Sequence record: PZ445440.1
DNA length: 64,000 nucleotides
From: a phage
Direction: 5' to 3' (one strand)
The notes under the pieces are model-generated. The model was not told the DNA's origin and searched no databases. It worked only from the letters and a program-made list of their open reading frames with translations. Both the position numbers and the translations under genes were made by a program. Each line of letters starts with the position of its first letter. The first letter of the stretch is position 1. Below, one piece after another: positions 3,214-62,821 of this stretch.

Positions 3214-3239
3214 GATGTTATCCTCTTTTAGATAGGACT

Positions 3240-3269
3240 ACTATATCATAGTCCTACTTAGTTGTAAAC
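3240..3269 (-). promoter_or_regulatory. T4-type early promoter with -10 embedded in inverted repeat TAGGACTA/TAGTCCTA
   Basis: Minus strand GTTTAC (3269-3264), 18-bp spacer, TATAGT; palindrome arms at 3233-3240 and 3249-3256. Confidence 0.45.
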
Positions 3270-4072: not shown

Positions 4073-4099
4073 AAAGAAAAAAAGGGGACCGAAGTCCCC
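4073..4099 (-). terminator. intrinsic terminator after rIIB (GGGGAC-UUCG-GUCCCC + U-tract)
   Basis: Plus strand aaagaaaaaaa-ggggac-cgaa-gtcccc; on minus-strand RNA a UUCG-tetraloop hairpin followed by U7. Confidence 0.65.
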
Positions 4100-5049: not shown

Positions 5050-7263
5050 TTATTTGGCCGCTTCCACGGCCTTCATGAATTTAACGATTTGAGCGACCTG
5101 TTCTTTGGAAAGAGTACCACGTCGTCCCATGTATTCTGACACAATATGATAATTGGTTTCGAATTCAATAACCATTTTATCATCATTATCGTAAGCATTA
5201 TCTTTAAGCTTATCGAAAATTTTAGCACACAATTCTAACTTCTTATTCAGGTCTGTATTAGTAGCACCTGCGAATCGATTCCATCCCCAACGATTATTTA
5301 CTGTTGAGAGTTTTGCAAAGTCTTTACTGATTTCTTTGTTCTTAGAGCTAAAATACTTACTAAGGAAATTAAGCTCTTCATTACGAGTAATATGATTCAA
5401 ATAAGGCTGTGCTCTACGACTTGGTGATACATACTCATCATAATCTACTTTATCGATTAGCATAATATAGTCATTAATTGATTTTTCGAACAAGCATTCT
5501 ACTTCACCAAGTTTACGAACTTTCTTAGCAATCTGTGGACGAACTACATTGAACTCTTTAATACCTGACAAATCAGCAATACGGGTCAAGAAATTAGAGT
5601 CATAGTTCAACCAACCTTTATCTGCGTCAAGACATTCAGCATTAGAACGATTACGAACTATAGCATAACCTTGGATTTCATCAGCTTCACTCGCTGGAAT
5701 AAAGAGATCTTCTGATACCCAAACATCGTTTTCATTCTTAAAGAACCGATGAGCACTTGGCGATTTAGGACGAGGCTCATTAGTCCGTTTCCTGACTTCA
5801 ATCCATGGCTTAACGATTTGTAAAAGCTCTGAAGTCTTGTACATGTTAATGTTGTCGCCATCAAAGATAACTTTAAGGCGTTCCAGAAGTTTCATTGCAT
5901 CTTCGTCTGTAGGGTCAACGAATAGTACGCTTTTACCAAAACCGCGTGGAACTTTACCAGTTAATTTAACCTCGTCTTTAGACATTTCAATTGAATTAAG
6001 AGCTCGCATTAATGGAACGCGTCCCTTAACGTCGTCAATAACAATTTCAACGTTTTTAATGTTAATGCCAATCAGACTGTTAATTGAAATGGTTGCCGTT
6101 GAGCTACCGCTTTCACGAATACGACGAAGACGAGGGGATTCAACGATATCGTATACGACGCCAAGATTACACCATTCAGGTCCCATTTTAAAACGTTTGT
6201 ACAACTCAGAATAAGTTAGTTGTTCTTTAGAGTATTTCAGTGATTCAATATTAGACCCGGCCTTTTCCATGTATTTACGAGCGGTATAGCCAAGAGAATC
6301 AATTTCACGGAACACATGACGTGGGTATTTACAATCAATCCATTTCTTAGAATCTTCAGCGAACAATTTAGCATCGATTTCTGCAACGCGTTTATGGATA
6401 TTTGCTACTGTACGTTTATCAAATGACAATGCTTCACGAGACGGGGCTACATCTAGTTCACCCATAGGGAATTTAATATAAGCTGTAGTGCACCGCGTCA
6501 TCATCCATGTTTGTTCTTTAATAACACTTCCGATTGGATATACAATACCACCATAAACAGCCATGATATTACCACGTTCACCCCATGGAGCTTCCTTGGC
6601 CAAATATACATCGTCAAATTCTGGGAAGTATTTAATATCTTTAACACCGCGAACTTCTGCAATATCACCTAGAGGACGCATAACATATGCAATTTCGGAT
6701 GCGAACTTTTCAAAATCTTCCGGGTTAACCGGTACAACTACTTCTACACCCGTACGGTCATTAGGGCCCATCTTATCTACAAAGGTCGGCTTAATTTGTG
6801 GACCTGTGTCATCTTGGTAGATTACGTAACCACGAACTTCGCCATTGTGATAAGACGTAAGGTTAAACGTATCAGTATATGCTAGTGGAGCTTTAGAACC
6901 GAGTCCGAATCCACCAATGAAATCGTTACTCGATGTTTTAGTTGAAGCAAAATATGAGTTATAAATTCCTGGTTCTTCATCATTACCACGAATAGTGAAA
7001 TCACTCATACCAGGACCAAAGTCTCGAACTACAAAACGTGGGTCTAAACGACCTGGAGCCTGAACAATAAATTTATCAGTGCAACCATTAAGAATTTGTC
7101 CATCTATACAGTTTGTGATTAATTCACGTACACAAGCCAATTCTTTGTTTGTATAAAGGTCATTAGACAAAATCTTATAAACTTTACTATTGCCTTGAAT
7201 AGTGAATGCTGTGCTCTTACCGCCTGAACCAATAATCGTTTCTTTAGCCGTTTCAATAATCAT
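5050..7263 (-). CDS. rIIA: rIIA protein (GHKL ATPase-like N-terminal domain)
   Basis: 737 aa; N-terminus MIIETAKETIIGSGGKSTAFTI...LYTNKELACVRELITNCIDG resembles T4 rIIA. Confidence 0.9.
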   Translation of the reverse strand: MIIETAKETIIGSGGKSTAFTIQGNSKVYKILSNDLYTNKELACVRELITNCIDGQILNGCTDKFIVQAPGRLDPRFVVRDFGPGMSDFTIRGNDEEPGIYNSYFASTKTSSNDFIGGFGLGSKAPLAYTDTFNLTSYHNGEVRGYVIYQDDTGPQIKPTFVDKMGPNDRTGVEVVVPVNPEDFEKFASEIAYVMRPLGDIAEVRGVKDIKYFPEFDDVYLAKEAPWGERGNIMAVYGGIVYPIGSVIKEQTWMMTRCTTAYIKFPMGELDVAPSREALSFDKRTVANIHKRVAEIDAKLFAEDSKKWIDCKYPRHVFREIDSLGYTARKYMEKAGSNIESLKYSKEQLTYSELYKRFKMGPEWCNLGVVYDIVESPRLRRIRESGSSTATISINSLIGINIKNVEIVIDDVKGRVPLMRALNSIEMSKDEVKLTGKVPRGFGKSVLFVDPTDEDAMKLLERLKVIFDGDNINMYKTSELLQIVKPWIEVRKRTNEPRPKSPSAHRFFKNENDVWVSEDLFIPASEADEIQGYAIVRNRSNAECLDADKGWLNYDSNFLTRIADLSGIKEFNVVRPQIAKKVRKLGEVECLFEKSINDYIMLIDKVDYDEYVSPSRRAQPYLNHITRNEELNFLSKYFSSKNKEISKDFAKLSTVNNRWGWNRFAGATNTDLNKKLELCAKIFDKLKDNAYDNDDKMVIEFETNYHIVSEYMGRRGTLSKEQVAQIVKFMKAVEAAK

Positions 7264-8680: not shown

Positions 8681-8713
8681 ATTAAAATTAAAATGAAGCT
8701 CCCGAAGGAGCTT
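8681..8713 (-). terminator. intrinsic terminator after gene 39 (UUCG tetraloop hairpin + U-rich tract)
   Basis: Plus aagctcc-cgaa-ggagctt preceded by A-rich run; hairpin overlaps the gene 39 stop codon. Confidence 0.55.
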
Positions 8714-10529
8714 AGGACATCCATTCTTTACGAAGTTCTGAATCATCACCCATCAACATTTCAAAGAGTTCTTTCCAATTTTCAGGAAGTTTAACTACGT
8801 CGTACACAGGGTTCTGAATCATTTCACGATATTCTGACTTTTCAAGGGAGCCTAATCCCTTGATGTATCGAATACTATGCTTAGGCAGTGTATCTTTAAC
8901 TTCTTCATACTCAGCTACAGTATAAAACCATTTTTGAGTTTTGCCAATTTGTGCAATAATTACAGGCGTTTTAACAAAGCGAATACGTCCTTGTTCGAAC
9001 AATTCAGGCCAATTACTAAAGAAAGCAAGCAAAGCCGGATAGATACTTCCAAGACCGTCGTGATCTGCATCAGTCATAATTGCAATATTACGATAGTTCG
9101 TATTCTCTGCCTTTTCACCAAGAATAAGACCTGTGATAGCACAGATATCGAAGAGCTCTTTGTTCTTCATCATATCAGCATATGACATACCCCAGCTATT
9201 CATCACCTTACCACGTAATGGGAATCCGCCGTGTAGTTCACGGTCACGAACATCAATGAGATAACCAATTGCCGAATCACCTTCTGTTAAGAACAATGTC
9301 GTATCTGCATCTTTACCACATTGGTTAGCTTTAATATGCTTATGAACCTTAGCTTTAGTTGCCTTTTTAGCTGCTTTAGTTTCTGCAGCCTTTTCTGCTG
9401 CCAATTTACGAGCTAATGCTGCTTCAACAATAGGCATAATCAAGGCTTCGTTTTTAAGAAGCGCCTGAGCAATTTTCTTAGCATCTAATTGGATATGATT
9501 ACGAATATCACCATACGTTGACGTTAAACGTTCTTTAGTCTGAGAATCAAAACGCATGTTGCTCATGTCTCTAATAAACATCAACATTGTGAGGCATTCT
9601 TTAACACGAGCTTTAGTGACTTCAATACCCTTATATTTCTTTTTAATACCCGGCAAAAGATGTTCGCAGATATCATCCATTACACATTCAACATGATGAC
9701 CACCATTTTTAGTATGGATGTTATTCACATAAGTTAAATGACGGAAGCCATCTGGTGATGTTGTGAATGCTATAGAGACTTTATCATTTTCTTGAATGAT
9801 GTTATCTTCACCAAATTGTTTAGCAAATCGTTTAAAATTACCATCAACCTTTTTACCATTAAATGTGAACTTGATGTCAGGATAAACGACTGCCAATGTT
9901 TGAAGTCGGTCTAAAGTAATATCTAAATAAATTTGAGATAAATTATGCTCTTCAAATGAAGTGAAATCAGGAGTGAAGATTACTTTAGTGCCTCTACCTT
10001 TAGATTTCTTAGAAGACCATGATTTGTTTTCCATTCCGTTTGAACAGTTAACAGTGATTTCATTTTCGCCATCTGACGTGATGCCTGTAAACAACGTAGA
10101 GAAGATATTAGTTAAACTACTCCCGACACCGTTCATACCACCAGTCTTGCGTTCAGAGTCATCGCCAAAGTTACCACCGGCCTTTGGAATAGTCCAGGCT
10201 GCTACAGGCCCAGGAATTTGTTCACCTGTTTGGTCGGTAACTAAACCTTGAGGAATACCACGTCCGTTATCTTCCACCGAAACTTGATTATTTTTAATTT
10301 GCACATCAATTTTATTTGCAAACTTAAATGATGTACGAATAGCTTCATCAACCGAGTTGTCAATAATCTCATCGATTAATTTAACCAGACCAGGAACATA
10401 TTCAACTTGTTGATATTTACCAAACAAAAAACGCTCGTGGGCTTCTTTAGCCGAAGAACCAATATACATACCACTACGTTTCTTAATATGTTCTACATCT
10501 GACAATACCTTAATTTCATTTTTAATCAT
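8712..10529 (-). CDS. 39: DNA topoisomerase II large subunit, fused gp39+gp60 equivalent (GyrB-like ATPase + Toprim)
   Basis: 605-aa continuous ORF; ATPase motifs (IDNSVDEA, GGNFGDDS) and Toprim region (LTEGDSA, DADHDG); no split or bypass element. Confidence 0.9.
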   Translation of the reverse strand: MIKNEIKVLSDVEHIKKRSGMYIGSSAKEAHERFLFGKYQQVEYVPGLVKLIDEIIDNSVDEAIRTSFKFANKIDVQIKNNQVSVEDNGRGIPQGLVTDQTGEQIPGPVAAWTIPKAGGNFGDDSERKTGGMNGVGSSLTNIFSTLFTGITSDGENEITVNCSNGMENKSWSSKKSKGRGTKVIFTPDFTSFEEHNLSQIYLDITLDRLQTLAVVYPDIKFTFNGKKVDGNFKRFAKQFGEDNIIQENDKVSIAFTTSPDGFRHLTYVNNIHTKNGGHHVECVMDDICEHLLPGIKKKYKGIEVTKARVKECLTMLMFIRDMSNMRFDSQTKERLTSTYGDIRNHIQLDAKKIAQALLKNEALIMPIVEAALARKLAAEKAAETKAAKKATKAKVHKHIKANQCGKDADTTLFLTEGDSAIGYLIDVRDRELHGGFPLRGKVMNSWGMSYADMMKNKELFDICAITGLILGEKAENTNYRNIAIMTDADHDGLGSIYPALLAFFSNWPELFEQGRIRFVKTPVIIAQIGKTQKWFYTVAEYEEVKDTLPKHSIRYIKGLGSLEKSEYREMIQNPVYDVVKLPENWKELFEMLMGDDSELRKEWMS

Positions 10530-10570
10530 GTTGTCTCCTCGTTATGAAGGTATTCTATCATCCGAAATCT

Positions 10571-10594
10571 AAAGCAAAAAGGGCCGAAGCCCTT
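10571..10594 (-). terminator. intrinsic terminator (GGGC-UUCG-GCCC hairpin + U-tract)
   Basis: Plus aaagcaaaaa-gggc-cgaa-gccc at the stop of ORF 10593-11018. Confidence 0.5.
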
Positions 10595-11631: not shown

Positions 11632-11885
11632 TAAGTTGTACCATTTTCAGTGATTTCACGGAAGATACCATAGATAGGCATTTCATCACCGAGTTTTTCG
11701 TAAACGTAAACCACTTCAGTGTAGCATAAAAATTCGGTCCAGTTTTTCTGTACAACAACTAAATCAGGATTAAACAGAACATCTTCAAACTCGTCGATGT
11801 TTGAATCAGTAGTTACATTTTTAATGATTTGACGTTTCATAATATTCTCCTCTTGTTTTGATAGGTCTATAGTATCATAGACCAT
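11613..11885 (-). CDS. hypothetical protein (90 aa)
   Basis: ORF in gene array. Confidence 0.55.
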
Positions 11886-12422: not shown

Positions 12423-12448
12423 ATTATTCTCCTCTGGTTGATATGGTT

Positions 12449-12477
12449 ATAATATCAAAACCAGAGGAGAAGTAAAC
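12449..12477 (-). promoter_or_regulatory. T4-type early promoter; -10 inside inverted repeat CCTCTGGTT/AACCAGAGG
   Basis: Minus GTTTAC (12477-12472), 17-bp spacer, TATTAT (12454-12449). Confidence 0.5.
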
Positions 12478-14684: not shown

Positions 14685-15998
14685 TCAAATAAAATGGACG
14701 TCAAAACGACCACGAGTTGTGCCGACATACAATAACTGTTTAGCTAATTCTGAATCGGCATAATGGATACACGGCGTATAAACAAAGGCCGTGTCAACAG
14801 ACATACCCTGGGCCTTATGGAAGGTTGATACAGGTAGTGCCTTCACCTTAGTGAACATACGTTTAGCATCCCAGAATTCGCTCCATGGGGCTTTACCACC
14901 TTTATTCCAAAATTTGTATGTTTCTGCGGTCTTAGCCAAAAACAAATTGAATTTATAAAGCTCTTCTTCAGAAGAAATAACCTTTATATCTTCGCGGATG
15001 TATTCTTCATCATCCCCATATGTTTCTACTGTAAGATTCCAGTATCGTATCATATATTCGCCTGAAACACCACGTGCTTTAACGAATGTAGACGTTTCTA
15101 CAGCATCTCGAATACGAACGAATTGCCCGTTATTGAAAAGCATTTCAGTCATATTTTTGCCATCTAGCTTGTACGTCTTAGTAAACGGCTCTTGTAGAAC
15201 AATGACTTCGTCTTTAATAAATGGTTTTTCTGTTTCAAGAAGTTTTCGGCGAATAATTGAATTTAACTTGTCCACCGACTTATTTGTGAATGCCATCATT
15301 CGATTTTCGAAAAGGTCTTCAGGAGTTTTAACGACGTTAAAATAGTTCATCATATACGATTTAAGGTCTGTATACCCATGAACACCGTGTCCATCAACTA
15401 CTTTATCGTAAATCCATTTGCCATTACGAATATCAGTCGCAACATCAATAATTGGTGCATTGCTACGTTTAACTTCTGTAAGGTTGCATTGCACGAAGTC
15501 TTTGTGAGTGAAGAAAGGACTTAGATATGCAGTTGATTCGCCTGGGTCTACCGGTCGAATCTGGCATCGGTCACCAATTCCAATTACTGTGCACCATTTA
15601 GGGATACTAGCTAACATTATTTTAAACAGAGAACGGTCGCACATTGATGCTTCATCAAATAACAGTACACGACACAAGGCTAAGTCGGGAACCTTTTTCT
15701 GTTCAAACAATACGTTTTCTTCGTATGTAGTTGGGTTGATTTTAAGAATGCTATGAATAGTCGATGCTTCTTGACCTGCAAGTTTGCTTAGAACCTTTTT
15801 AGCTGCATGTGTAGGGGCTGCTAAAATAATACCTGATTCTCCAGAAGAAATAAGGGCTTCAACGATGAATCTAGTAAGGGTTGTTTTACCTGTACCAGCA
15901 GGCCCATTAATAGTTACGTGATGTTTCTTTTCTTTAATAGCGTTCATAACAACATTGAAGGCGTTTTTCTGGCCGTCAGTCAAATCATCAAATGTCAT
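14685..15998 (-). CDS. dda: Dda SF1B DNA helicase
   Basis: 437 aa; MTFDDLTDGQKNAFNVVMNAIKEKKHHVTINGPAGTGKTT nearly identical to T4 Dda N-terminus from memory. Confidence 0.95.
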   Translation of the reverse strand: MTFDDLTDGQKNAFNVVMNAIKEKKHHVTINGPAGTGKTTLTRFIVEALISSGESGIILAAPTHAAKKVLSKLAGQEASTIHSILKINPTTYEENVLFEQKKVPDLALCRVLLFDEASMCDRSLFKIMLASIPKWCTVIGIGDRCQIRPVDPGESTAYLSPFFTHKDFVQCNLTEVKRSNAPIIDVATDIRNGKWIYDKVVDGHGVHGYTDLKSYMMNYFNVVKTPEDLFENRMMAFTNKSVDKLNSIIRRKLLETEKPFIKDEVIVLQEPFTKTYKLDGKNMTEMLFNNGQFVRIRDAVETSTFVKARGVSGEYMIRYWNLTVETYGDDEEYIREDIKVISSEEELYKFNLFLAKTAETYKFWNKGGKAPWSEFWDAKRMFTKVKALPVSTFHKAQGMSVDTAFVYTPCIHYADSELAKQLLYVGTTRGRFDVHFI

Positions 15999-16306
15999 CG
16001 TAAAGTCCCTGCAATTGGAATACTAACAATACGGCCTGTGTCCAGGATTCGTTGATACAATCTTTGCGTCTCCGCATCTAGTTTAATGTGTTTCATTTCA
16101 AGCTTATTAAACCAGAACTTACGCGGAGTTTCGACCATTCTTAGAACTCCCATTTTTAAATCTGTTTTATACTGTGTTTTCAAAGTATCGAAAACTTTAT
16201 CTGCAATATCCTTTCTAAAAAATACTGCAGGACGATGCTCATCAAGTGGAACCGGGACAGTAAATCCTTCCATATCTCGATAAACTATTGCATATACATA
16301 AACCAT
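15995..16306 (-). CDS. dda.1: Dda.1-like hypothetical protein (103 aa)
   Basis: 4-nt overlap with dda start; synteny. Confidence 0.6.
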   Translation of the reverse strand: MVYVYAIVYRDMEGFTVPVPLDEHRPAVFFRKDIADKVFDTLKTQYKTDLKMGVLRMVETPRKFWFNKLEMKHIKLDAETQRLYQRILDTGRIVSIPIAGTLR

Positions 16307-16308
16307 AA

Positions 16309-17055
16309 TTAACCTTTAATCAGTTGGAATAATAATGCGCTAAGTGGTAAGCCACGTTTCAATTTTAATTTACCAATGAAACCAATCTTTTCAAAACGTT
16401 GCAGACCTTGGATAACTTTATCATATGTATCGAAAAGCGATTCAGCGTCAGTTAATTTAGTTTTAGTTTTCCAGTCAGAGCCTTTAAGAAGAACGTTGAG
16501 TTTAGTAAGTTCATGGCCTTCTGCTTGATGTGAGCCGTTAATGCGTGCTTTCAAAGCAACAATTCTAAGTTTAGATTCGTTAGATAAAGGTTGATTTTTC
16601 ATCATGTTCGCCATATGCTTAACACGATTTTCACGTTTTGCTCGGATTTTTAAAATAGTACCATAAACCTTTTTAATTTGGGCCCATTTCTTCTCGTCGA
16701 GATTAAGTTTCTCTACTTTACGGGCAGAAGGATTAGCGATACGTCTTGCAACGGCATCACGTTTCTCAATAAGTTCTTCTAATGTTAAATCAGAACGAGC
16801 TGTGTTATATTTTTTCTTAACCGGGATAACATTACCTTTAATGTAGCCTATATCATTATTAAAACGTTCTAAGGATAATTTCTCACCTTCAACAGAGTTA
16901 TTGAAAGATTCACCTGAGTAAGCGCAGACCTTTTGATCAAGAATGTTTTTAAGGTAATTAAAGTCTAAGTTAAAATCCTTAGAGCGTCTCTTCGCAGAAG
17001 CTCTGGTGTGGTCAAGACGACGATTGATTTTGTTAATTTTATTATTTGATAACAT
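16309..17055 (-). CDS. srd: basic protein, possibly Srd (sigma-decoy) by position
   Basis: 248 aa, Lys/Arg-rich; located between dda.1 and modA as in T4; identity not verified. Confidence 0.45.
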   Translation of the reverse strand: MLSNNKINKINRRLDHTRASAKRRSKDFNLDFNYLKNILDQKVCAYSGESFNNSVEGEKLSLERFNNDIGYIKGNVIPVKKKYNTARSDLTLEELIEKRDAVARRIANPSARKVEKLNLDEKKWAQIKKVYGTILKIRAKRENRVKHMANMMKNQPLSNESKLRIVALKARINGSHQAEGHELTKLNVLLKGSDWKTKTKLTDAESLFDTYDKVIQGLQRFEKIGFIGKLKLKRGLPLSALLFQLIKG

Positions 17056-17207
17056 AATATTTTCCTCTGTCTTACGGACGTTAGGACATTTAGCTGATAA
17101 GCTTATAATATCATGCCCTCAGGTAGTGTACACTCTTTTTTCATAAAATGCTTTAATTTTTTATGTGTTATAATGGTTCTGAGTTCCATCCGGTTATTCC
17201 AATTCAG

Positions 17208-17873: not shown

Positions 17874-18455
17874 CTAAAAATTCAACATTTTCAAATGAAT
17901 GATTTTGTATAATCGAGATAAAGGGTCATATTCTAAGTCTTCAATTTCCACAATCTCAAATCTAGAGATACCTGAGACCATGTACTCTTGTTCAGATTCA
18001 ATCATATCTAGGACGTCAACACGCGTTTCTTCCATAACATGCTTAGGGTTCTTTCCGGCGAGTACAATGTTAACCATGTTTTGGTAGTAATCAAAAATGA
18101 ATGGAGCATTCCTGAGACTAAGAATAGTGTACGTCTGATATTCCCATCTCCCAGAGAATTGACGAGCTGTACTGAAATCAGTTGTGAACGATGTTACTCG
18201 TCCAGGAGACCAATGGCATCCAACAGAAAGAAGGGAAAGACGTTCTACTTCTTCTGGAGTTACACCACGGTAGAGTTCTACTGGTACTGTAGAAGTCATA
18301 TGCTTACGAACAAGATGGTCTAATTCATAGTGGAAATCCGGGTCTTCCTTAGAATCGGTGCAAGCCCAGAGAATGTTTTGTTCTTGGCGGGTGAATTTGC
18401 TATCAATCAGATTTGTTAGGTATTCGCGTTCTTGAAGTTCAGATTGACATGTCAT
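17874..18455 (-). CDS. modB: ADP-ribosyltransferase ModB-like
   Basis: 193 aa; paralog of the preceding gene (ILWACT...TSTVPVELYRG). Confidence 0.7.
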   Translation of the reverse strand: MTCQSELQEREYLTNLIDSKFTRQEQNILWACTDSKEDPDFHYELDHLVRKHMTSTVPVELYRGVTPEEVERLSLLSVGCHWSPGRVTSFTTDFSTARQFSGRWEYQTYTILSLRNAPFIFDYYQNMVNIVLAGKNPKHVMEETRVDVLDMIESEQEYMVSGISRFEIVEIEDLEYDPLSRLYKIIHLKMLNF

Positions 18456-18531
18456 GATAGACCTCCATTTAAAGATAAGTCTATCATAACACGAGAGGAG
18501 GGAATGTAAACTACTTTTTAAGCTTTCCTAC

Positions 18532-19935: not shown

Positions 19936-20002
19936 ATTGTTCTCCTCTTGAGTAAGTAAGAATATCTTAACATAGTTTTTAGTGGTTGTAAACTGTAGAA
20001 AC

Positions 20003-20031
20003 AAAAAAAAAAAGGAATCCCGAAGGATTCC
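20003..20031 (-). terminator. intrinsic terminator after soc (GGAAUCC-UUCG-GGAUUCC + U11)
   Basis: Plus a11-ggaatcc-cgaa-ggattcc; 9 nt after the soc stop codon. Confidence 0.8.
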
Positions 20032-20040
20032 TTAAATTAT

Positions 20041-20844: not shown

Positions 20845-20933
20845 TATTTTTCCTTTCAATTCAGTATAAGAGAGTTTAATTCTAACATTAATTTTATAAA
20901 GCGTAATAAATAATAGGTAACTAAGGAGATATT

Positions 20934-21131
20934 ATGTTTAAACTTCCATCGTTAATCAACGCTATTAAAGGCAATAAAAAGAAAACTGCTATCGCTGCAA
21001 TAGTTGTAGGTGGCATTATTTCATGGAACTTCGGGATTGCACCATTGTTAGTTGCCCATGGTATTATAGTTCCTTCTGTTCCGTTGGATACTGTGGTTGA
21101 TTTGGCCTTTGCTATTATAGGGCTTGTTTAA
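20934..21131 (+). CDS. small membrane protein (65 aa) on the plus strand
   Basis: Fits exactly the gap between gene 56 start and gene 61 stop; strong SD AAGGAG 6 nt upstream of ATG; hydrophobic (IAAIVVGGIISW...AFAIIGLV). Confidence 0.6.
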   Translation: MFKLPSLINAIKGNKKKTAIAAIVVGGIISWNFGIAPLLVAHGIIVPSVPLDTVVDLAFAIIGLV

Positions 21132-22189: not shown

Positions 22190-22684
22190 TCACAACTTAT
22201 TAATATTTACTTTAATTCGCTTTCTTTTCTTGGAAGGAATTTGTTCGGGACCTTTATTTACAATTGCACCTGTAGTAGTTCCTGATGCAATAGCTTGAGG
22301 ATTGCCGTCTGAATCACCAGCAACCATATCCTCAAATAAAGGGAGTTCTTTAAATATTTCTTTCTGTTGTTCTTCAGTAATGTTATAGCGTGAAGCTACA
22401 GCACTCCAAGCAGACATCATTGATGCCATTCCATTAAGACCTGGAACAGTGTTCATCATTCGCTTCATTGAACGAACTGAAGCATGAAAAGGTGTATACG
22501 CCGCTTTCTCTTCAGGAGTGGAAGGACGTTTAAGAACACTTCCACGTTCATCGATGATTTTGGCTTCATATGCTTTCCATTCGGTAAAAGGTTTTTGCAT
22601 TAGTCGAATAAACTTATATGCGTAAACAGAATCTATTGCAGTGTTAATAATACCCATAGGTACCTCCTGAGTATATTTAATCAA
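22190..22684 (-). CDS. hypothetical protein (164 aa)
   Basis: ORF in gene array. Confidence 0.6.
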   Translation of the reverse strand: MIKYTQEVPMGIINTAIDSVYAYKFIRLMQKPFTEWKAYEAKIIDERGSVLKRPSTPEEKAAYTPFHASVRSMKRMMNTVPGLNGMASMMSAWSAVASRYNITEEQQKEIFKELPLFEDMVAGDSDGNPQAIASGTTTGAIVNKGPEQIPSKKRKRIKVNINKL

Positions 22685-23821: not shown

Positions 23822-23850
23822 TTTAACTCCTTAGTTGATTTGATAGGACT

Positions 23851-23880
23851 ACTATACTATAGTCCATCTATAATGTAAAC
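23851..23880 (-). promoter_or_regulatory. T4-type early promoter; -10 within inverted repeat GGACTA/TAGTCC
   Basis: Minus GTTTAC (23880-23875), 18-bp spacer, TATAGT. Confidence 0.5.
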
Positions 23881-25135: not shown

Positions 25136-25161
25136 TTTGTTCTCCAGTAGTTGATAGGTCT

Positions 25162-25190
25162 ATAATAACACAACTACTGGAGAAGTAAAC
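25162..25190 (-). promoter_or_regulatory. T4-type early promoter (GTTTAC-N17-TATTAT)
   Basis: Plus ttgataggtctataataacacaactactggagaagtaaac. Confidence 0.5.
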
Positions 25191-25620: not shown

Positions 25621-25650
25621 AAACCCCGAAAGGAGACCGAAGTCTCCTTT
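25621..25650 (-). terminator. hairpin terminator after gene 41 (GGAGAC-UUCG-GUCUCC)
   Basis: Plus ggagac-cgaa-gtctcc flanked by T/A-rich runs on both sides (possibly bidirectional). Confidence 0.5.
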
Positions 25651-27105: not shown

Positions 27106-27468
27106 TTAAAAGAATTTAAATTTTTTCTTGGTCCGTTCATTAAAAGCTTGTTGTACTTGCATTGTAACACATTTTTCAACATGCGGTGCAAGTTCTGCTT
27201 TTCTGTCCTGGTCAAGAACTGCAAAGTCCATTACGATTTTACCATCAACCCAGTCTAGTTTTGTAATATAGACTATATGATGGGAACCGTCTTCAAGTGT
27301 AATCAGAATCTCTTGAATGACATTTTCCATTGCTGAACGGACAATTTTAAGAGATTCATTAAACACTCGTTCTTTGCGAATGTCTTCCCCTTCCGAAGAA
27401 GGGGATTCATCAACGATTTCTAGATTTAAATCATCGAGATTATTCATCGAAATCTTCCATTTCGTCAA
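27106..27468 (-). CDS. 40: gp40-like protein by position (120 aa)
   Basis: Located between uvsX and gene 41 as T4 gene 40; sequence identity not verified. Confidence 0.45.
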   Translation of the reverse strand: MTKWKISMNNLDDLNLEIVDESPSSEGEDIRKERVFNESLKIVRSAMENVIQEILITLEDGSHHIVYITKLDWVDGKIVMDFAVLDQDRKAELAPHVEKCVTMQVQQAFNERTKKKFKFF

Positions 27469-29260: not shown

Positions 29261-30160
29261 TTATTCCTCGATTACGACATCTTCGTATTTAGGTATATTA
29301 TACGGTGAAGAAATTAAAGCATTAAAGTAGATGAACTCACCAAGACCTGGATGGAATACTTCTTCAGGATTTTCGAAATATTGAATCTTCGGACGTCCTT
29401 TAAGAATTTGATAGTACTCAGTTTTAGTTGGTTTAAAAATTCGAATCAGCGCTTCTTCAGGATACTTATTTCTGTCGAAGCTATTATTTGGATCGGTTAT
29501 ATAAAGCGGTTGACCTAATTGAATTGCACATTCAACCACTTGTTCAAAACGATAGCATGGGTCACTAATTCGAAATGGATGAAAAATACCATCTAGATGA
29601 ATAGGAGCCAAATCACCTACAAGACGCTGCATGATGGAAGGACGTATAACTTTCTGGGTTATGATAATCTTATTACCATCGGCACCTGCGTTAACCAGCA
29701 CTTCTTTTTGACGTTCATTCAACACAGTAGTTTGAAGTGAACGATTAACAGACAACATATCGGTTTTTAAGAATTCGTCAATATAAAAACGTGGTTTATT
29801 AGGGTCTGCAGTGATATTGAAATTGAATTCTACATCAAAAGCGCCGTCATATCCAGTGATATCTGTGATTAGAAAATCACAATCATAATAAGCAATTAAT
29901 GAATCAACCACAAATTCATTTTCAGACCAGAAATATTTACGAGTGTTATACGCGTTATCTTTATACCATAATGGAACAAACTTAAATTCTGGGAAAAGAC
30001 GTTCACATTCTTTAATATCAGATGCATTACGTGGATATGTAATCACATCACCCGGATTAGCACGGTGCAAATGAAGTTGGAAGTTGCCATCCTTAAGGAT
30101 AGCATACTGTCCAGTTTCATAAGACCGCATACTCAAGATAGGTACGCGGAAAATAGCCAT
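29261..30160 (-). CDS. hypothetical protein (299 aa), candidate novel DNA sugar-transferase
   Basis: No recognisable motifs; translationally coupled to gene 42 (stop/start overlap); occupies the beta-gt position. Confidence 0.6.
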   Translation of the reverse strand: MAIFRVPILSMRSYETGQYAILKDGNFQLHLHRANPGDVITYPRNASDIKECERLFPEFKFVPLWYKDNAYNTRKYFWSENEFVVDSLIAYYDCDFLITDITGYDGAFDVEFNFNITADPNKPRFYIDEFLKTDMLSVNRSLQTTVLNERQKEVLVNAGADGNKIIITQKVIRPSIMQRLVGDLAPIHLDGIFHPFRISDPCYRFEQVVECAIQLGQPLYITDPNNSFDRNKYPEEALIRIFKPTKTEYYQILKGRPKIQYFENPEEVFHPGLGEFIYFNALISSPYNIPKYEDVVIEE

Positions 30161-32758: not shown

Positions 32759-34443
32759 TAGATTCGTTCCCATTGATGAGTGATATCGCCACCGATTGGA
32801 CGATAGGAAACACCAGTTTCTTTATCAGTTAGTACCCATTTACCAGGATTTTTTGTAATAAGAGTAGCCGTTACAGGTTCTGCTACGTCATAACTAATAG
32901 AGCCGTCTTGAAGTACACGGCCCATGTTACGTAATTGCTTAGTCAGAAGTTCCATACCTTTATAATATGCGGCTACCGCTTTAAGTGGATTATTCTTGAA
33001 ATAACCACCTAATGCAATCCAGATAATTGCCACCGCCAAATGATGATACTCGTTAAACGAACTCATCTTTCCATATTTGTAAATTAATGGATTGATGTTA
33101 ATAGTCACATTACAAGTTGTTTCATCAATAGTAAACTGTCCCCAGGTCGGATTAGCATTGAATTCATCATAACCTGAAACAGCGTAAAGCACTTTAGCTT
33201 CATCGTACAATTTTGGCCCGTAAATCTTGGTTTCACCAAAATATCCACGAGGGTCGATAAACTTGACTTCGCCATTATCAGTAATCATAGTATTACTGAA
33301 GTTCGGGTCACCATGAATAACAGAGTACTGTCCCTGAGAACGGTTATGATAACGAATAAGGTGTTCTAAAGCTTGTTTCAACATTGGCTTCAGACGTCCA
33401 ATCTTAGTGTAGTTCACATGTGTGATTTTACCAAATGAATCAATCAATGGTTGAATGCTTTCACAACGATCAATAACTTTCGTATAGAATTCTTTAGTGA
33501 AATCACGACGGACAGTTTCAGGACTTACAAAATAAGTGTCTGTGCTGAATTTCAGTGCATCTAAAATTGCATCAACAATTTGTGGACGAGCAAGACTTGA
33601 TTTGGATTTAATATATTCAAATGCCGGCTTACCTTTAATGCGTTCCATTTCAAAGTTATTTTCATTAACAGAAACTAACTGAGGAACTGAATCTGATTTC
33701 ACTTTCAAGTACCACGAAATCTCATCTTTCTGAAGAGCTCGACCCTGTTCGGTTAATGCGAATTTAGTTACAGTTTCTTCACCAATTTCAACTGCATTAA
33801 AACTACGATTAAGTTCACGAACTTCATGAGCTTTTTCAAGTTTAGGCATATCACCTAAATCAATTAGATTCATAAGCTCTGATTTATTGAATGCGCCGCT
33901 GTAAAGGAATTCTACGAAATCACGTCCTTTGCAGTATTCATGAATTTCCTCATCAGTAGAACCCATATAGAATTCCCAGTCTTTGAACTGATAAATTCCT
34001 ACAACATTACCGCCTGTTGCACCTACATTAGTGATATTTTCACCGTCGAAATTATATCGACATTCGTCACCCTTAACATAGATTGCGTTAACATTCCAAG
34101 ACCATGAACCAAAATCAGGAATAATATCACACCAGTTAACAATTACGTTATGGCCGTCTAAATCTTTGTGTAATTTAGCAAGAGCATAAGCAGAACCATA
34201 CGCTTCATCAACTGTACGAATAGTCACATTGAACCCTTCTTGCTCACAATAAGCTCGAACAGTTTCAGCAAATTTTGAATGAACTACTACAATAATTTCA
34301 TCTGCGCCAAGGTCAGAATAAATTGTATACAAATTGCTCAGAATAGTGTCTTGTTTATAGTTAACAAGCACCTTAGGAATATGATGCGTTATTGGATACA
34401 AACGAGTTGCCAGTCCAGCACCAAGAATAACAGCTTTTTTCAT
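32758..34443 (-). CDS. bifunctional sugar-1-phosphate nucleotidyltransferase / anomeric sugar kinase (LicC-like N-domain + APH/choline-kinase-like C-domain)
   Basis: 561 aa; N-terminal MKKAVILGAGLATRLYPITHHIPKVLV (NTP-transferase signature); C-terminal VIHGDPNFSNTMI (Brenner HGDxxxxN) and FIDPRGYFG. Confidence 0.8.
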   Translation of the reverse strand: MKKAVILGAGLATRLYPITHHIPKVLVNYKQDTILSNLYTIYSDLGADEIIVVVHSKFAETVRAYCEQEGFNVTIRTVDEAYGSAYALAKLHKDLDGHNVIVNWCDIIPDFGSWSWNVNAIYVKGDECRYNFDGENITNVGATGGNVVGIYQFKDWEFYMGSTDEEIHEYCKGRDFVEFLYSGAFNKSELMNLIDLGDMPKLEKAHEVRELNRSFNAVEIGEETVTKFALTEQGRALQKDEISWYLKVKSDSVPQLVSVNENNFEMERIKGKPAFEYIKSKSSLARPQIVDAILDALKFSTDTYFVSPETVRRDFTKEFYTKVIDRCESIQPLIDSFGKITHVNYTKIGRLKPMLKQALEHLIRYHNRSQGQYSVIHGDPNFSNTMITDNGEVKFIDPRGYFGETKIYGPKLYDEAKVLYAVSGYDEFNANPTWGQFTIDETTCNVTININPLIYKYGKMSSFNEYHHLAVAIIWIALGGYFKNNPLKAVAAYYKGMELLTKQLRNMGRVLQDGSISYDVAEPVTATLITKNPGKWVLTDKETGVSYRPIGGDITHQWERI

Positions 34444-38012: not shown

Positions 38013-38045
38013 TTAATTTCCTTTAGACGAGTTATTGTCTTTTGT
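38013..38045 (-). promoter_or_regulatory. candidate gp43 translational operator (RNA hairpin AGAC-AAUAACUC-GUCU adjacent to SD)
   Basis: Minus RNA AAGACAAUAACUCGUCUAAAGGAAAUUAAAUG: 4-bp stem, 8-nt loop, then SD AAGGA and the gp43 AUG. Confidence 0.45.
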
Positions 38046-38072
38046 TTGTTGGATGAACTTATTATACTCCAA

Positions 38073-38090
38073 ATGGGACCGAAGTCCCAT
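38073..38090 (-). terminator. UUCG-tetraloop hairpin between regA and gene 43 (terminator or RNA stability element)
   Basis: Plus atgggac-cgaa-gtcccat, 7-bp stem; weak U-tract; immediately followed (in transcript direction) by a TATAAT box. Confidence 0.35.
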
Positions 38091-38094
38091 TGCT

Positions 38095-39993: not shown

Positions 39994-40068
39994 GTAATTT
40001 TCCTCATTATCATTAAACTGGAGGATTTCTCCTCCATAATCGTATCACAATAAACGTAAAGCTTTGAC

Positions 40069-44654: not shown

Positions 44655-44694
44655 ATTATTTCCTCATTAGTTAATTCATTCTATCATCCGTTTA

Positions 44695-44724
44695 TAAAGC
44701 AAAAAAGGAACTCCGAAGAGTTCC
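44695..44724 (-). terminator. intrinsic terminator (GGAACUC-UUCG-GAGUUCC + U6)
   Basis: Plus aaaaaa-ggaactc-cgaa-gagttcc immediately after the stop of the small ORF 44724-44897. Confidence 0.6.
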
Positions 44725-44897
44725 TATCCACATAGTACACCGTACAGAGGCTCATTTGAACTTTTAAATCGAATGGGCTTGTATGTAATAGTTCCTTCGG
44801 CTTTAGCTTTATCATAAGACTCTTTAAAACGTCTCATTCTTTCTGCTTTGCCTTTACGGATTTTATCGAAATTTTCAGAAGTCGGGATGTTCGTCAT
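44724..44897 (-). CDS. small hypothetical protein (57 aa)
   Basis: Hand translation MTNIPTSENFDKIRKGKAERMRRFKESYDKAKAEGTITYKPIRFKSSNEPLYGVLCG; terminator directly after its stop. Confidence 0.45.
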   Translation of the reverse strand: MTNIPTSENFDKIRKGKAERMRRFKESYDKAKAEGTITYKPIRFKSSNEPLYGVLCG

Positions 44898-48533: not shown

Positions 48534-48698
48534 TTTATTTTCCTCTATAGTAGATGGTTTAATCTTAACACATCTATTGAGGATGTAAACTGTTTTATGA
48601 AAATATTTTCAATTTGAGAGGGGCACAAGGAGATAGTGAAGTGAAGATTCCAATGGATTATATTAGAAACGAGATAAAGAAGACCAGGCGGCACCTGG

Positions 48699-49070
48699 TC
48701 AATCTTCTATGATATCAGAGTCATATCCTAATGAAATCAAGGACTTTTTAAACTCTGCAATATTCTTTTGTTTCTTATCATTTAAAAATATGACAGGATA
48801 ACGAATATTAAGTGAAGTGAATCCTGCACGTTTAGCAAGAGATACGATTAAAGGACGGTCATATTCAATCTTACCATTATTAGTGAGGACTTTATAAAAT
48901 GTATAAGGAGCATTGAGCTCCTTTAAAAGTTTTGTAACAGTATAACATCCTGGACAACGTCCAACTTCTTCAGGGATGCCATAAACTTCAATTTTATTCT
49001 TTGGGTTCGAGTTTTGTTCCACGAGAAATAATTCCTTGATAAGCCCAGTACGGCGGGTTAACAGAATCAT
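48699..49070 (-). CDS. nrdH: glutaredoxin/NrdH-like redoxin (start uncertain)
   Basis: Redoxin domain KIEVYGIPEEVGRCPGCYTV begins exactly at the stop of ORF 48994-49305 with no canonical start codon; nearest in-frame ATG is at 49070. Confidence 0.5.
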   Translation of the reverse strand: MILLTRRTGLIKELFLVEQNSNPKNKIEVYGIPEEVGRCPGCYTVTKLLKELNAPYTFYKVLTNNGKIEYDRPLIVSLAKRAGFTSLNIRYPVIFLNDKKQKNIAEFKKSLISLGYDSDIIED

Positions 49071-58407: not shown

Positions 58408-58434
58408 GTTTTACCTCCAGTAGTTGATAGGTCT

Positions 58435-58463
58435 ATAATAACATAACCATAGACCTTGTAAAC
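58435..58463 (-). promoter_or_regulatory. T4-type early promoter; -10 between inverted repeat arms AGGTCTAT/ATAGACCT
   Basis: Minus GTTTAC (58463-58458), 17-bp spacer, TATTAT (58440-58435). Confidence 0.5.
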
Positions 58464-59960: not shown

Positions 59961-59986
59961 ACCCCCTAAAGGGCCCGAAGGCCCTT
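59961..59986 (-). terminator. hairpin (AAGGGCC-UUCG-GGCCCUU) after ORF 59988-60977; weak U-tract
   Basis: Plus aagggcc-cgaa-ggccctt adjacent to the stop codon. Confidence 0.35.
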
Positions 59987-61999: not shown

Positions 62000-62303
62000 T
62001 TAAAGTTTCAACAAAATTCACCAAATCATTCTGACGAGCATCAACTTGTTTTTCATAAAAGTCTCCACAGTCATTTACTGCATGATAAGCTACATCATTT
62101 AAATCTGAATCAGCTTCACGTAAGTCATGGATAAGGTCCATCAATTTATTAGCTTGTTCACGGGTCATTTTACCATACTCGTTTCAATAAGATTCACTAT
62201 GCCGTTTACCATGTTATAAGTAAACATCGGATAATTGTATTGTATCACAACGTATACGATAAGCAAAAGTTTCATTTTGTTCTCCATTTGTTTTGGTAGG
62301 ACT

Positions 62304-62333
62304 ACTATAACATAGTCCTACCAAGATGTAAAC
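62304..62333 (-). promoter_or_regulatory. T4-type early promoter; -10 in the loop of a perfect 10-bp inverted repeat GGTAGGACTA/TAGTCCTACC
   Basis: Minus GTTTAC (62333-62328), 18-bp spacer, TATAGT; arms at 62295-62304 and 62313-62322. Confidence 0.5.
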
Positions 62334-62795: not shown

Positions 62796-62821
62796 AAAGC
62801 CCCGACCTTTCGGAAGGGGCT
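62792..62821 (-). terminator. intrinsic terminator after ORF 62828-63130
   Basis: Plus aaaaa-agcccc-gacctttcggaa-ggggct: GC stem followed by U5 on the minus-strand RNA. Confidence 0.5.

Follow-up and report, generated by a model that had tools for sequence, protein, structure and literature searches.

The window analysed here, a stretch of 64,000 nucleotides of phage DNA, carries on its minus strand a series of short hairpins that share the same UUCG tetraloop. The copy standing just past the gene soc (20012-20033) raises the question of what such elements do: are they intrinsic transcription terminators throughout, or is termination only one of the uses to which a common hairpin is put? A sequence-only reading had listed eight of them, each with a C-G pair closing the loop, and had named them intrinsic terminators, several with long U-tracts; it had also taken the uniform loop as a sign of selection for very stable hairpins.

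Over 4 kb around the 20012 hairpin the identity is 100% with Escherichia phage ChristianSchoenbein (Bas46, MZ501056.1; Straboviridae, Tevenvirinae, Mosigvirus), a T4-like, RB69-like phage, and 97% with many RB69-like phages. The window corresponds to positions 64479-128478 of the ChristianSchoenbein record, and covers the early and middle gene region from motA, gene 52, rIIB and rIIA to topoisomerase and soc, continuing through genes 41 and 40, uvsX, gene 43, regA and genes 45-47 up to tk. Its G+C content is 36-39% and its coding share 93%, and the GenBank record of ChristianSchoenbein contains no regulatory features. All annotated genes of the window but one lie on the minus strand. The exception is a 66-codon hypothetical ORF at 20931-21131, between the dCTPase and primase genes, whose 3' end shares a 4-nt overlap with the 3' end of the primase gene.

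Census of the UUCG hairpins

We have scanned the window exhaustively for Watson-Crick stems of at least 5 bp around 4-nt loops. The scan yielded eleven C(UUCG)G hairpins, all perfect, with stems of 5-9 Watson-Crick bp and a C-G closing pair in all eleven (Table 1). The eight hairpins proposed earlier are all among these, every one of the coordinate pairs delimiting a perfect inverted repeat around plus-strand CGAA, and three copies are new (216-231, 1743-1756 and 27386-27405). The same exhaustive scan of the window returned no hairpin in the opposite orientation, that is, with TTCG on the plus strand. Among 108 four-base loops CGAA comes first by a wide margin, the runner-up being found four times. 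As a null model we used 200 dinucleotide-preserving shuffles of the window, in which CGAA and TTCG hairpins together average 0.64 with a maximum of 3, against the 11 observed, and in which the most frequent loop of any type averages 3.4 with a maximum of 6; these shuffles rule out a chance origin of the UUCG hairpins. The CTTCGG hexamer is itself in excess (31 copies, 15.1 expected), and on the minus strand 11 of the 13 copies fall in hairpins, on the plus strand none of 18. The nearest-neighbour prediction for the bare hairpins ranges from -7.5 to -13.5 kcal/mol, and the fold z-scores of single hairpins are modest (-1.4 to -3.8). Rfam recorded no family at gathering score anywhere in the window.

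Table 1. UUCG hairpins of the window, the MotA boxes beside two of them and a second class of intergenic hairpins; all features are on the minus strand.
Position	Feature	Stem	Location	Tail or following sequence	Fold (kcal/mol; z)
216-231	C(UUCG)G hairpin	6 bp	76 nt past gene 52 stop; upstream of motA early-promoter-like site (189-162)	CUUUGUGCAUUU (also given as CUUUGUGCAUUUUUC)	
1743-1756	C(UUCG)G hairpin	5 bp perfect; 11 bp with G-U pairs (1737-1762)	in bas46_0091 CDS, 21 nt past acridine-resistance gene stop		-16.5; z = -3.2
4084-4099	C(UUCG)G hairpin	6 bp, GGGGAC/GUCCCC	5 nt past rIIB stop; next gene start 21 nt downstream	UUUUUUUCUUU; canonical terminator-like	
8696-8713	C(UUCG)G hairpin	7 bp	overlaps gene 39 stop; next gene start 26 nt downstream	CAUUUUAAUUUU, weak U-tract	
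10570-10578	MotA box TTTGCTTTA		before gene 39	12 nt, then TAGAAT	
10579-10594	C(UUCG)G hairpin	6 bp	5' arm overlaps bas46_0105 stop; upstream of gene 39	UUUUUGCUUU	
20012-20033	C(UUCG)G hairpin	9 bp, AAGGAAUCC UUCG GGAUUCCUU	7 nt past soc stop	11 U at 20001-20011; U in 8/8 first tail bases; canonical terminator-like	-12.8; z = -2.7
25629-25650	C(UUCG)G hairpin	9 bp, AAAGGAGAC/GUCUCCUUU	3 nt past gene 41 stop	CGGGGUUUACAU, no U-tract	
27386-27405	C(UUCG)G hairpin	8 bp, UCCCCUUC/GAAGGGGA	in gene 40 CDS, 34 nt past uvsX stop	AGACAUUCGCAA, no U-tract	-17.3
38072-38091	C(UUCG)G hairpin	8 bp	3 nt past regA stop; upstream of gene 43 leader	UGGAGUAUAAUA, more fully UGGAGUAUAAU; no U-tract	
44695-44703	MotA box TTTGCTTTA		before gene 47	11 nt, then TAGAAT	
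44706-44725	C(UUCG)G hairpin	8 bp	overlaps bas46_0160 stop; upstream of gene 47	UUUUUUGCUUU	z = -3.75
59969-59986	C(UUCG)G hairpin	7 bp, AAGGGCC/GGCCCUU	1 nt past bas46_0195 stop	UAGGGGGUCAAA, no U-tract	
2718-2747	second-class hairpin				
3232-3257	second-class hairpin				
11864-11883	second-class hairpin				
12428-12470	second-class hairpin				
18449-18492	second-class hairpin				
23842-23868	second-class hairpin				
25141-25183	second-class hairpin				
58429-58456	second-class hairpin				
62293-62324	second-class hairpin				

The CUUCGG-hairpin phenomenon of T4 was reportedly described by Tuerk et al. (1988, PNAS 85:1364). The UUCG hairpins of the window are a real feature and one already known from T4 since 1988, for which reason they leave the current understanding unchanged. 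According to PMC8948821, the motif (X)2-8-CUUCGG-(Y)2-8 is common in many phages and chiefly intergenic, and in T4 such hairpins are abundant, stop reverse transcriptase and have varied known functions; PMC1702504 describes T4 intergenic stem-loops, for example terminators, as often UUCG-looped and RegB-resistant. The hairpins of the window agree with those of T4 in motif, (X)n-CUUCGG-(Y)n, in phage subfamily, in their mostly intercistronic position and in their sense orientation, and T4 has orthologs of the copies past soc and ahead of gene 39, of the one separating regA from gene 43, and of the one within gene 40. Nothing essential differs; the genome is that of an RB69-like Mosigvirus, in which individual stems and U-tracts are different from those of T4, and sites 216 and 8696 carry UUCG only in this clade.

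Gene ends, strand and conservation

The position of the hairpins relative to genes is far from random. Ten of the eleven start no more than 35 nt past a stop codon, a condition that holds for only 7% of window positions (binomial P = 3e-11); three overlap the stop codon itself and five more begin 1-7 nt past it. Despite the 93% coding share, nine are intergenic, and the two intragenic copies (27386-27405 and 1743-1756) also lie shortly past a stop codon, since the next gene overlaps that stop. For gene ends in general, 27 out of 112 are followed within 60 nt by a simple hairpin (-7 kcal/mol or better); C(UUCG)G accounts for ten of these 27, the remaining loops each being found once.

The strand is equally constant. 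A further 90 kb of this genome, in which some late-gene blocks lie on the opposite strand, yielded 12 more C(UUCG)G hairpins, all with UUCG in the local sense RNA. Four of them have TTCG on the plus strand and stand in plus-strand late-gene blocks, following the major capsid gene, the helicase gene at 15570-17084, a baseplate wedge gene and fibritin. Over 154 kb of genome the loop is thus sense-oriented in 23 of 23 hairpins. Four unlinked gene ends of this genome, two of them those of the major capsid gene and of gene 32, were noted to share an identical stem, GGGAGAC-UUCG-GUCUCCC (10333-10352, 33059-33078 and 48070-48087 in L185; 31551-31570 in L186), and a close variant follows gene 41 (25629-25650). 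Such recurrence suggests copying or gene conversion between elements, or else strong convergence.

We have also collected, with gp39, gp41, RegA and rIIB as probes, about 180 sense-oriented loci from T4-like contigs of IMG/VR. In these relatives UUCG is again the top four-base loop, with 196 distinct sense hairpins against 13 antisense, and a C-G pair closes 192 of the 196; GAAA ranks second (n=70). The preference is limited to a clade, as T-even-like loci have 75 UUCG against 2 CGAA, and distant metagenomic T4-like relatives of similar G+C (52-57% RegA identity) have 6 against 2, so that in the latter it is nearly absent. The UUCG preference therefore belongs to the T-even-like clade.

The individual sites differ in what is retained. 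At the soc site C(UUCG)G is present in 26 of 34 distinct relatives on 10 different stems, accompanied by a U-tract in 25 of the 26; in phage MM02 (MK373784, 97% identical) the orthologous hairpin bears the computational annotation 'putative transcriptional terminator'. The rIIB site has C(UUCG)G in 17 of 22 distinct relatives on 6 stems, and a U-tract in only 8 of the 17. At the gene 41 site the corresponding figure is 16 of 39, also on 6 stems, 11 of them with a U-tract and 5 without. The regA site of relatives yielded nine C(UUCG)G hairpins on 6 stems, eight of which are without a U-tract, and in other relatives the loop is replaced by UACG, GAAA, UCCG, CGUG or G(UUCG)C; the T4 regA-gene 43 hairpin, at 29952-29969, has the same GGAGUAUAAU. 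In relatives the 44706 site retains UUCG on a different stem, AUAGGAGC. Directly after the gp39 stop a hairpin is found in 27 of 30 distinct relatives, with UUCG in only five of them and AUGA, UUUU, AUAU, GUCUU and others elsewhere; none has a U-tract, and the Shine-Dalgarno sequence of the next gene comes directly after. A stable hairpin past the uvsX stop (about -11 to -19 kcal/mol) is present in 38 of 39 distinct relatives. In 36 of them the distance from the stop is 31-60 nt, placing the hairpin within gene 40, and a U-tract is always lacking; two relatives, more distant ones, have it right at the stop and with a U-tract. The stems and loops of this hairpin (UUCG, UCAG, GAAG, CUAGU, GAAA and others) differ widely between clades. 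The T4 copy is at 22329-22348, and between ChristianSchoenbein and T4 this hairpin exhibits a U-A to C-G double change that is synonymous on both sides, the frame having been read by eye. At the 216 site UUCG is not conserved in the relatives' loci fetched, and among the loci fetched with the four probes there was no ortholog of the 59969 site.

Covariation was analysed in loop-anchored alignments at the soc and rIIB sites. At soc, 5 of 8 stem pairs display changes on both sides, at rIIB 4 of 6; the loop and closing pair are invariant, and G-U pairs are present in the stems. Pairing amounts to 100% (soc) and 96% (rIIB), against at most around 70% once the partner is shifted by one column, percentages that are inflated since the sequences were picked for having a stem around CTTCGG. 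Taken together, the sense orientation, the adjacency to stop codons and the fixed loop on covarying stems support selection acting on an RNA structure, and bear out the view that the uniform loop reflects selection for a very stable hairpin. Moreover, the regA, gp39 and uvsX sites keep a hairpin without a U-tract, and therefore the hairpin itself is selected even where canonical termination is implausible.

Tails and downstream promoters

A distinct picture emerges from the sequences that follow the stems, which fall into two classes. All the hairpins are G+C-rich stem-loops on the transcribed strand, and the tail is where they part. A consensus scan of the minus strand indicated five terminator-like sites (4084, 8696, 10579, 20012 and 44706). 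A second filter, consisting of a tail score and an approximate d'Aubenton-Carafa-type score, left four clear cases, the formula being applied in approximate form and with modern energy parameters, so that its values are indicative and the class boundary approximate. The site that dropped out, 8696, passes the laxer tail rule of the consensus scan. The U-tract is marginal at 8696 and 1743 and lacking at 216, 25629, 27386, 38072 and 59969, whose tails are unable to form a weak rU:dA hybrid; CGGGG, UGGAG, UAGGGGG and AGACAUUCG are among the tails of hairpins without U-tract.

By their anatomy, the hairpins at 4084, 10579, 20012 and 44706 look like canonical intrinsic terminators, and at these four sites they resemble the Rho-independent terminators of E. 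coli and its phages in having a G+C-rich hairpin and a U-tract downstream of a gene. Unlike such terminators, most sites have no U-tract, two are located in coding sequences, and two of the U-tracts double as the start of a MotA box. The long U-tracts that had been described are thus confirmed for the hairpins listed at 4084, 10580, 20014 and 44707 and do not hold for those listed at 8696, 25632, 38073 and 59969. In the same way, the name of intrinsic terminator suits about four of the eleven, and extending it to all of them over-reaches, because most tails have no U-tract and two hairpins lie within coding sequences. The hairpins without U-tract are more likely to be weak attenuators or 3'-end protective caps. 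For this subset the additional remark of the sequence-only reading, that such hairpins may shield 3' ends from exonucleases, is the better guess.

Promoter-like sequences were found within about 30 nt downstream of seven of the nine intergenic hairpins, and downstream of 4084 and 8696 the next start codon is reached within 21-26 nt. The U-tracts of 10579 and 44706 run straight into textbook MotA-dependent middle promoters (consensus and spacing of 11-13 bp to the -10 from PMC2988021), an arrangement that for gene 39 has a T4 counterpart at 5381-5398. These two promoters (10553-10578 and 44679-44703, minus strand) are near-identical, with an 11-12-nt spacer that ends in CGGATGA before TAGAAT, and before genes 39 and 47 the bases of the terminator U-tract also form the T-rich beginning of the MotA box. 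In the whole window WWTGCTTYA is found 24 times (9.7 expected). Matches to T4-early-type promoters, of the form T(T/G)TACA, 16-17 nt and a TG-extended -10, follow the 216, 20012, 25629 and 59969 hairpins by 5-29 nt; at 25629 an early-promoter-like TTTACA-17-TATGAT with TG begins 5 nt downstream, and at 59969 a similar site is 29 nt away. Promoter-like matches are overall no commoner than in shuffles, and the adjacency of early promoters is therefore suggestive only. As judged from the sequence, the hairpins mark the boundaries of cistrons and of transcription units.

Downstream of the regA hairpin there is a conserved GGAGTATAAT, and the tail of this hairpin includes a conserved -10-like TATAAT at 38061-38066. 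We considered its DNA as the MotA box of a gene 43 promoter and dropped this possibility, the spacing to the -10 being around 15 bp, more than the 11-13 bp expected. In the gene 43 leader a separate hairpin, AGAC-AAUAACUC-GUCU (38025-38040, minus strand), ends 12 nt before the start codon and matches the 16-base RB69-type gp43 translational operator (PMC3014915); it is distinct from the UUCG hairpin 32 nt upstream.

PeSL (promoter-early stem-loop) elements are terminator/promoter cassettes of T4-type phages (PMC2839356, PMC4122927), in which a compact intergenic stem-loop attenuator is combined with a strong sigma-70-type early promoter. The arrangements at 216, 20012, 25629 and 59969, in which the promoters are consensus matches, may be comparable, with the difference that the PeSL stem-loop is usually placed between the -35 and -10 or over the -10, whereas the UUCG hairpins lie upstream of the -35 or of the MotA box.

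Proposed roles of the hairpins at cistron ends

We propose that the elements are RNA-level punctuation hairpins at cistron ends, acting as terminators where a U-tract follows and as 3'-end protection or boundary where it does not, a reading to which we assign a probability of about 0.75. The C(UUCG)G cap would allow a stem of only 5-9 bp to fold fast and stably in an A+T-rich genome (37% G+C). Where a U-tract is present (soc, rIIB, before gene 39 and before gene 47), an ordinary Rho-independent terminator would result and would end a transcription unit immediately ahead of the promoter or gene that follows. At the sites that have none (25629, 38072, 59969, 216, 8696, 27386 and 1743), termination would probably be poor or nil, and the hairpin would most likely form a barrier to 3'-to-5' exonucleases or a processing boundary, protecting the 3' end of the upstream cistron; some pausing or attenuation might also ensue. 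We infer termination, exonuclease blocking and RNA protection from the sequence, and the division into two functional classes has against it that hairpins without U-tract can still terminate weakly or with the help of protein factors. Neither 3'-end maps (Term-seq, ONT-cappable-seq) for T4-like phages nor any mention of the terminator of T4 gene 32 and the omega interposon turned up in the literature searched.

Bacterial mRNA 3'-stabiliser hairpins, such as REP-type elements and terminator stem-loops, block PNPase and RNase II and do not require a U-tract. The hairpins described here are likewise stable stem-loops at cistron 3' ends for which a U-tract is not required, but they are much shorter (5-9 bp) and tetraloop-dependent, and the function is in their case putative. 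Processing by RNase III is an unlikely alternative, the stems being too short at 5-9 bp by what is generally known of that enzyme's requirements.

Another view is that the hairpins serve mainly mRNA stability or processing, as caps against PNPase, RNase II and RNase R or as RNase E/RegB boundaries, with termination being secondary. The hairpin is indeed conserved regardless of the U-tract, and T4 mRNA decay involves 3'-exonucleases (PMC3014915). In addition, GGAG buried in UUCG structures resists RegB, as stated in PMC1702504, and PMC8948821 includes transcript stabilisation among the reported functions of T4 CUUCGG hairpins. The near-universal retention of the soc U-tract points instead to selection for termination itself, and a role mainly in stability or processing appears unlikely.

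The proposal made before this analysis, that every hairpin is an efficient intrinsic terminator, accounts for the G+C-rich stems, the extra-stable loop and the sense-strand position downstream of stops throughout, and the promoter-like sequences that soon follow seven of the nine intergenic copies are as would be expected at transcription-unit boundaries. It is confronted with the absence of a U-tract from six to seven of the eleven hairpins and with the regA and gp39 sites of relatives, which retain the hairpin and not the U-tract. Also, the two copies within coding sequences require read-through if gene 40, and gene 41 downstream of gene 40, are to be expressed. For these reasons we find it quite improbable that all eleven terminate efficiently.

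A comparably small chance is given to the idea that the hairpins without U-tract are not degenerate terminators and constitute a separate class of ribosome- or RNase-facing punctuation. Its members may be those with 5' arms that contain or abut a stop codon, together with the gene 40 hairpin that has counterparts in 38 of 39 relatives. If this were so, they would give each cistron its own mRNA 3' end or adjust the termination and re-initiation of translation, and would be mechanistically akin to the gene 60 bypass hairpin.

A role in translation proper is a further possibility, in which the hairpin would modulate termination, ribosome release or re-initiation on the next cistron. Eight of the eleven hairpins begin within 7 nt of a stop codon, three of them overlapping it; in relatives, the gp39-site hairpin is immediately succeeded by the Shine-Dalgarno sequence of the next gene. 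The T4 gene 60 take-off hairpin, with its similar geometry, is also C(UUCG)G-looped and has a stop codon in its 5' arm (PMC3014915). In ChristianSchoenbein the topoisomerase gene 39 is unsplit (605 aa) and has no bypass element, and the hairpins follow genuine gene ends. However, with a coding share of 93%, hairpins would lie close to stop codons in any case, and many of them precede promoters and not a coupled gene. We regard a translational function as very improbable. Under the preferred reading of punctuation at the RNA level, the ribosome could still matter: a terminating ribosome would have to melt the eight hairpins that start within 7 nt of the stop codon, and hairpin formation, and with it termination at the U-tract sites, could depend on how closely it trails the polymerase.

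Extremely improbable is an action at the DNA level, through cruciforms, PeSL-like recombination linkers or protein-binding palindromes: the four unlinked copies of GGGAGAC-UUCG-GUCUCCC and the likeness of the hairpin-plus-promoter modules to the PeSL cassettes proposed to mediate shuffling would agree with it, but G-U stem pairs are a property of RNA, and a palindrome is strand-neutral whereas the asymmetric loop tracks transcription (23 of 23 here, 196 against 13 in relatives), which rules out a palindrome function.

In practical terms, the 11 hairpins of the window and the 12 outside it can be annotated as cistron and transcription-unit boundaries, and their combination with the early and MotA-dependent promoters next to them would provide a usable transcription map. 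A UUCG hairpin after a gene does not by default warrant the label of terminator. Being compact and very stable, the hairpins may also be useful parts for synthetic biology.

Two further kinds of hairpin were observed on the minus strand. A second class consists of long A+T-rich inverted repeats, many with arms of the GGACTAT...ATAGTCC type (Table 1), which have a -10-like TATAGT or TATAAT in the loop or stem, beside early-promoter-like -35 sites; by their sequence these look like PeSL cassettes (PMC2839356, PMC4122927). Finally, a few other compact G+C-rich hairpins stand at gene ends without UUCG, at 62798-62821, 48682-48700 and 40019-40036 (minus strand); of these, one combines a GAAA loop with UUUUGG as its tail, another a GCC triloop with the tail UUCUUUAU, and the one after gene 45 again has a GAAA loop.
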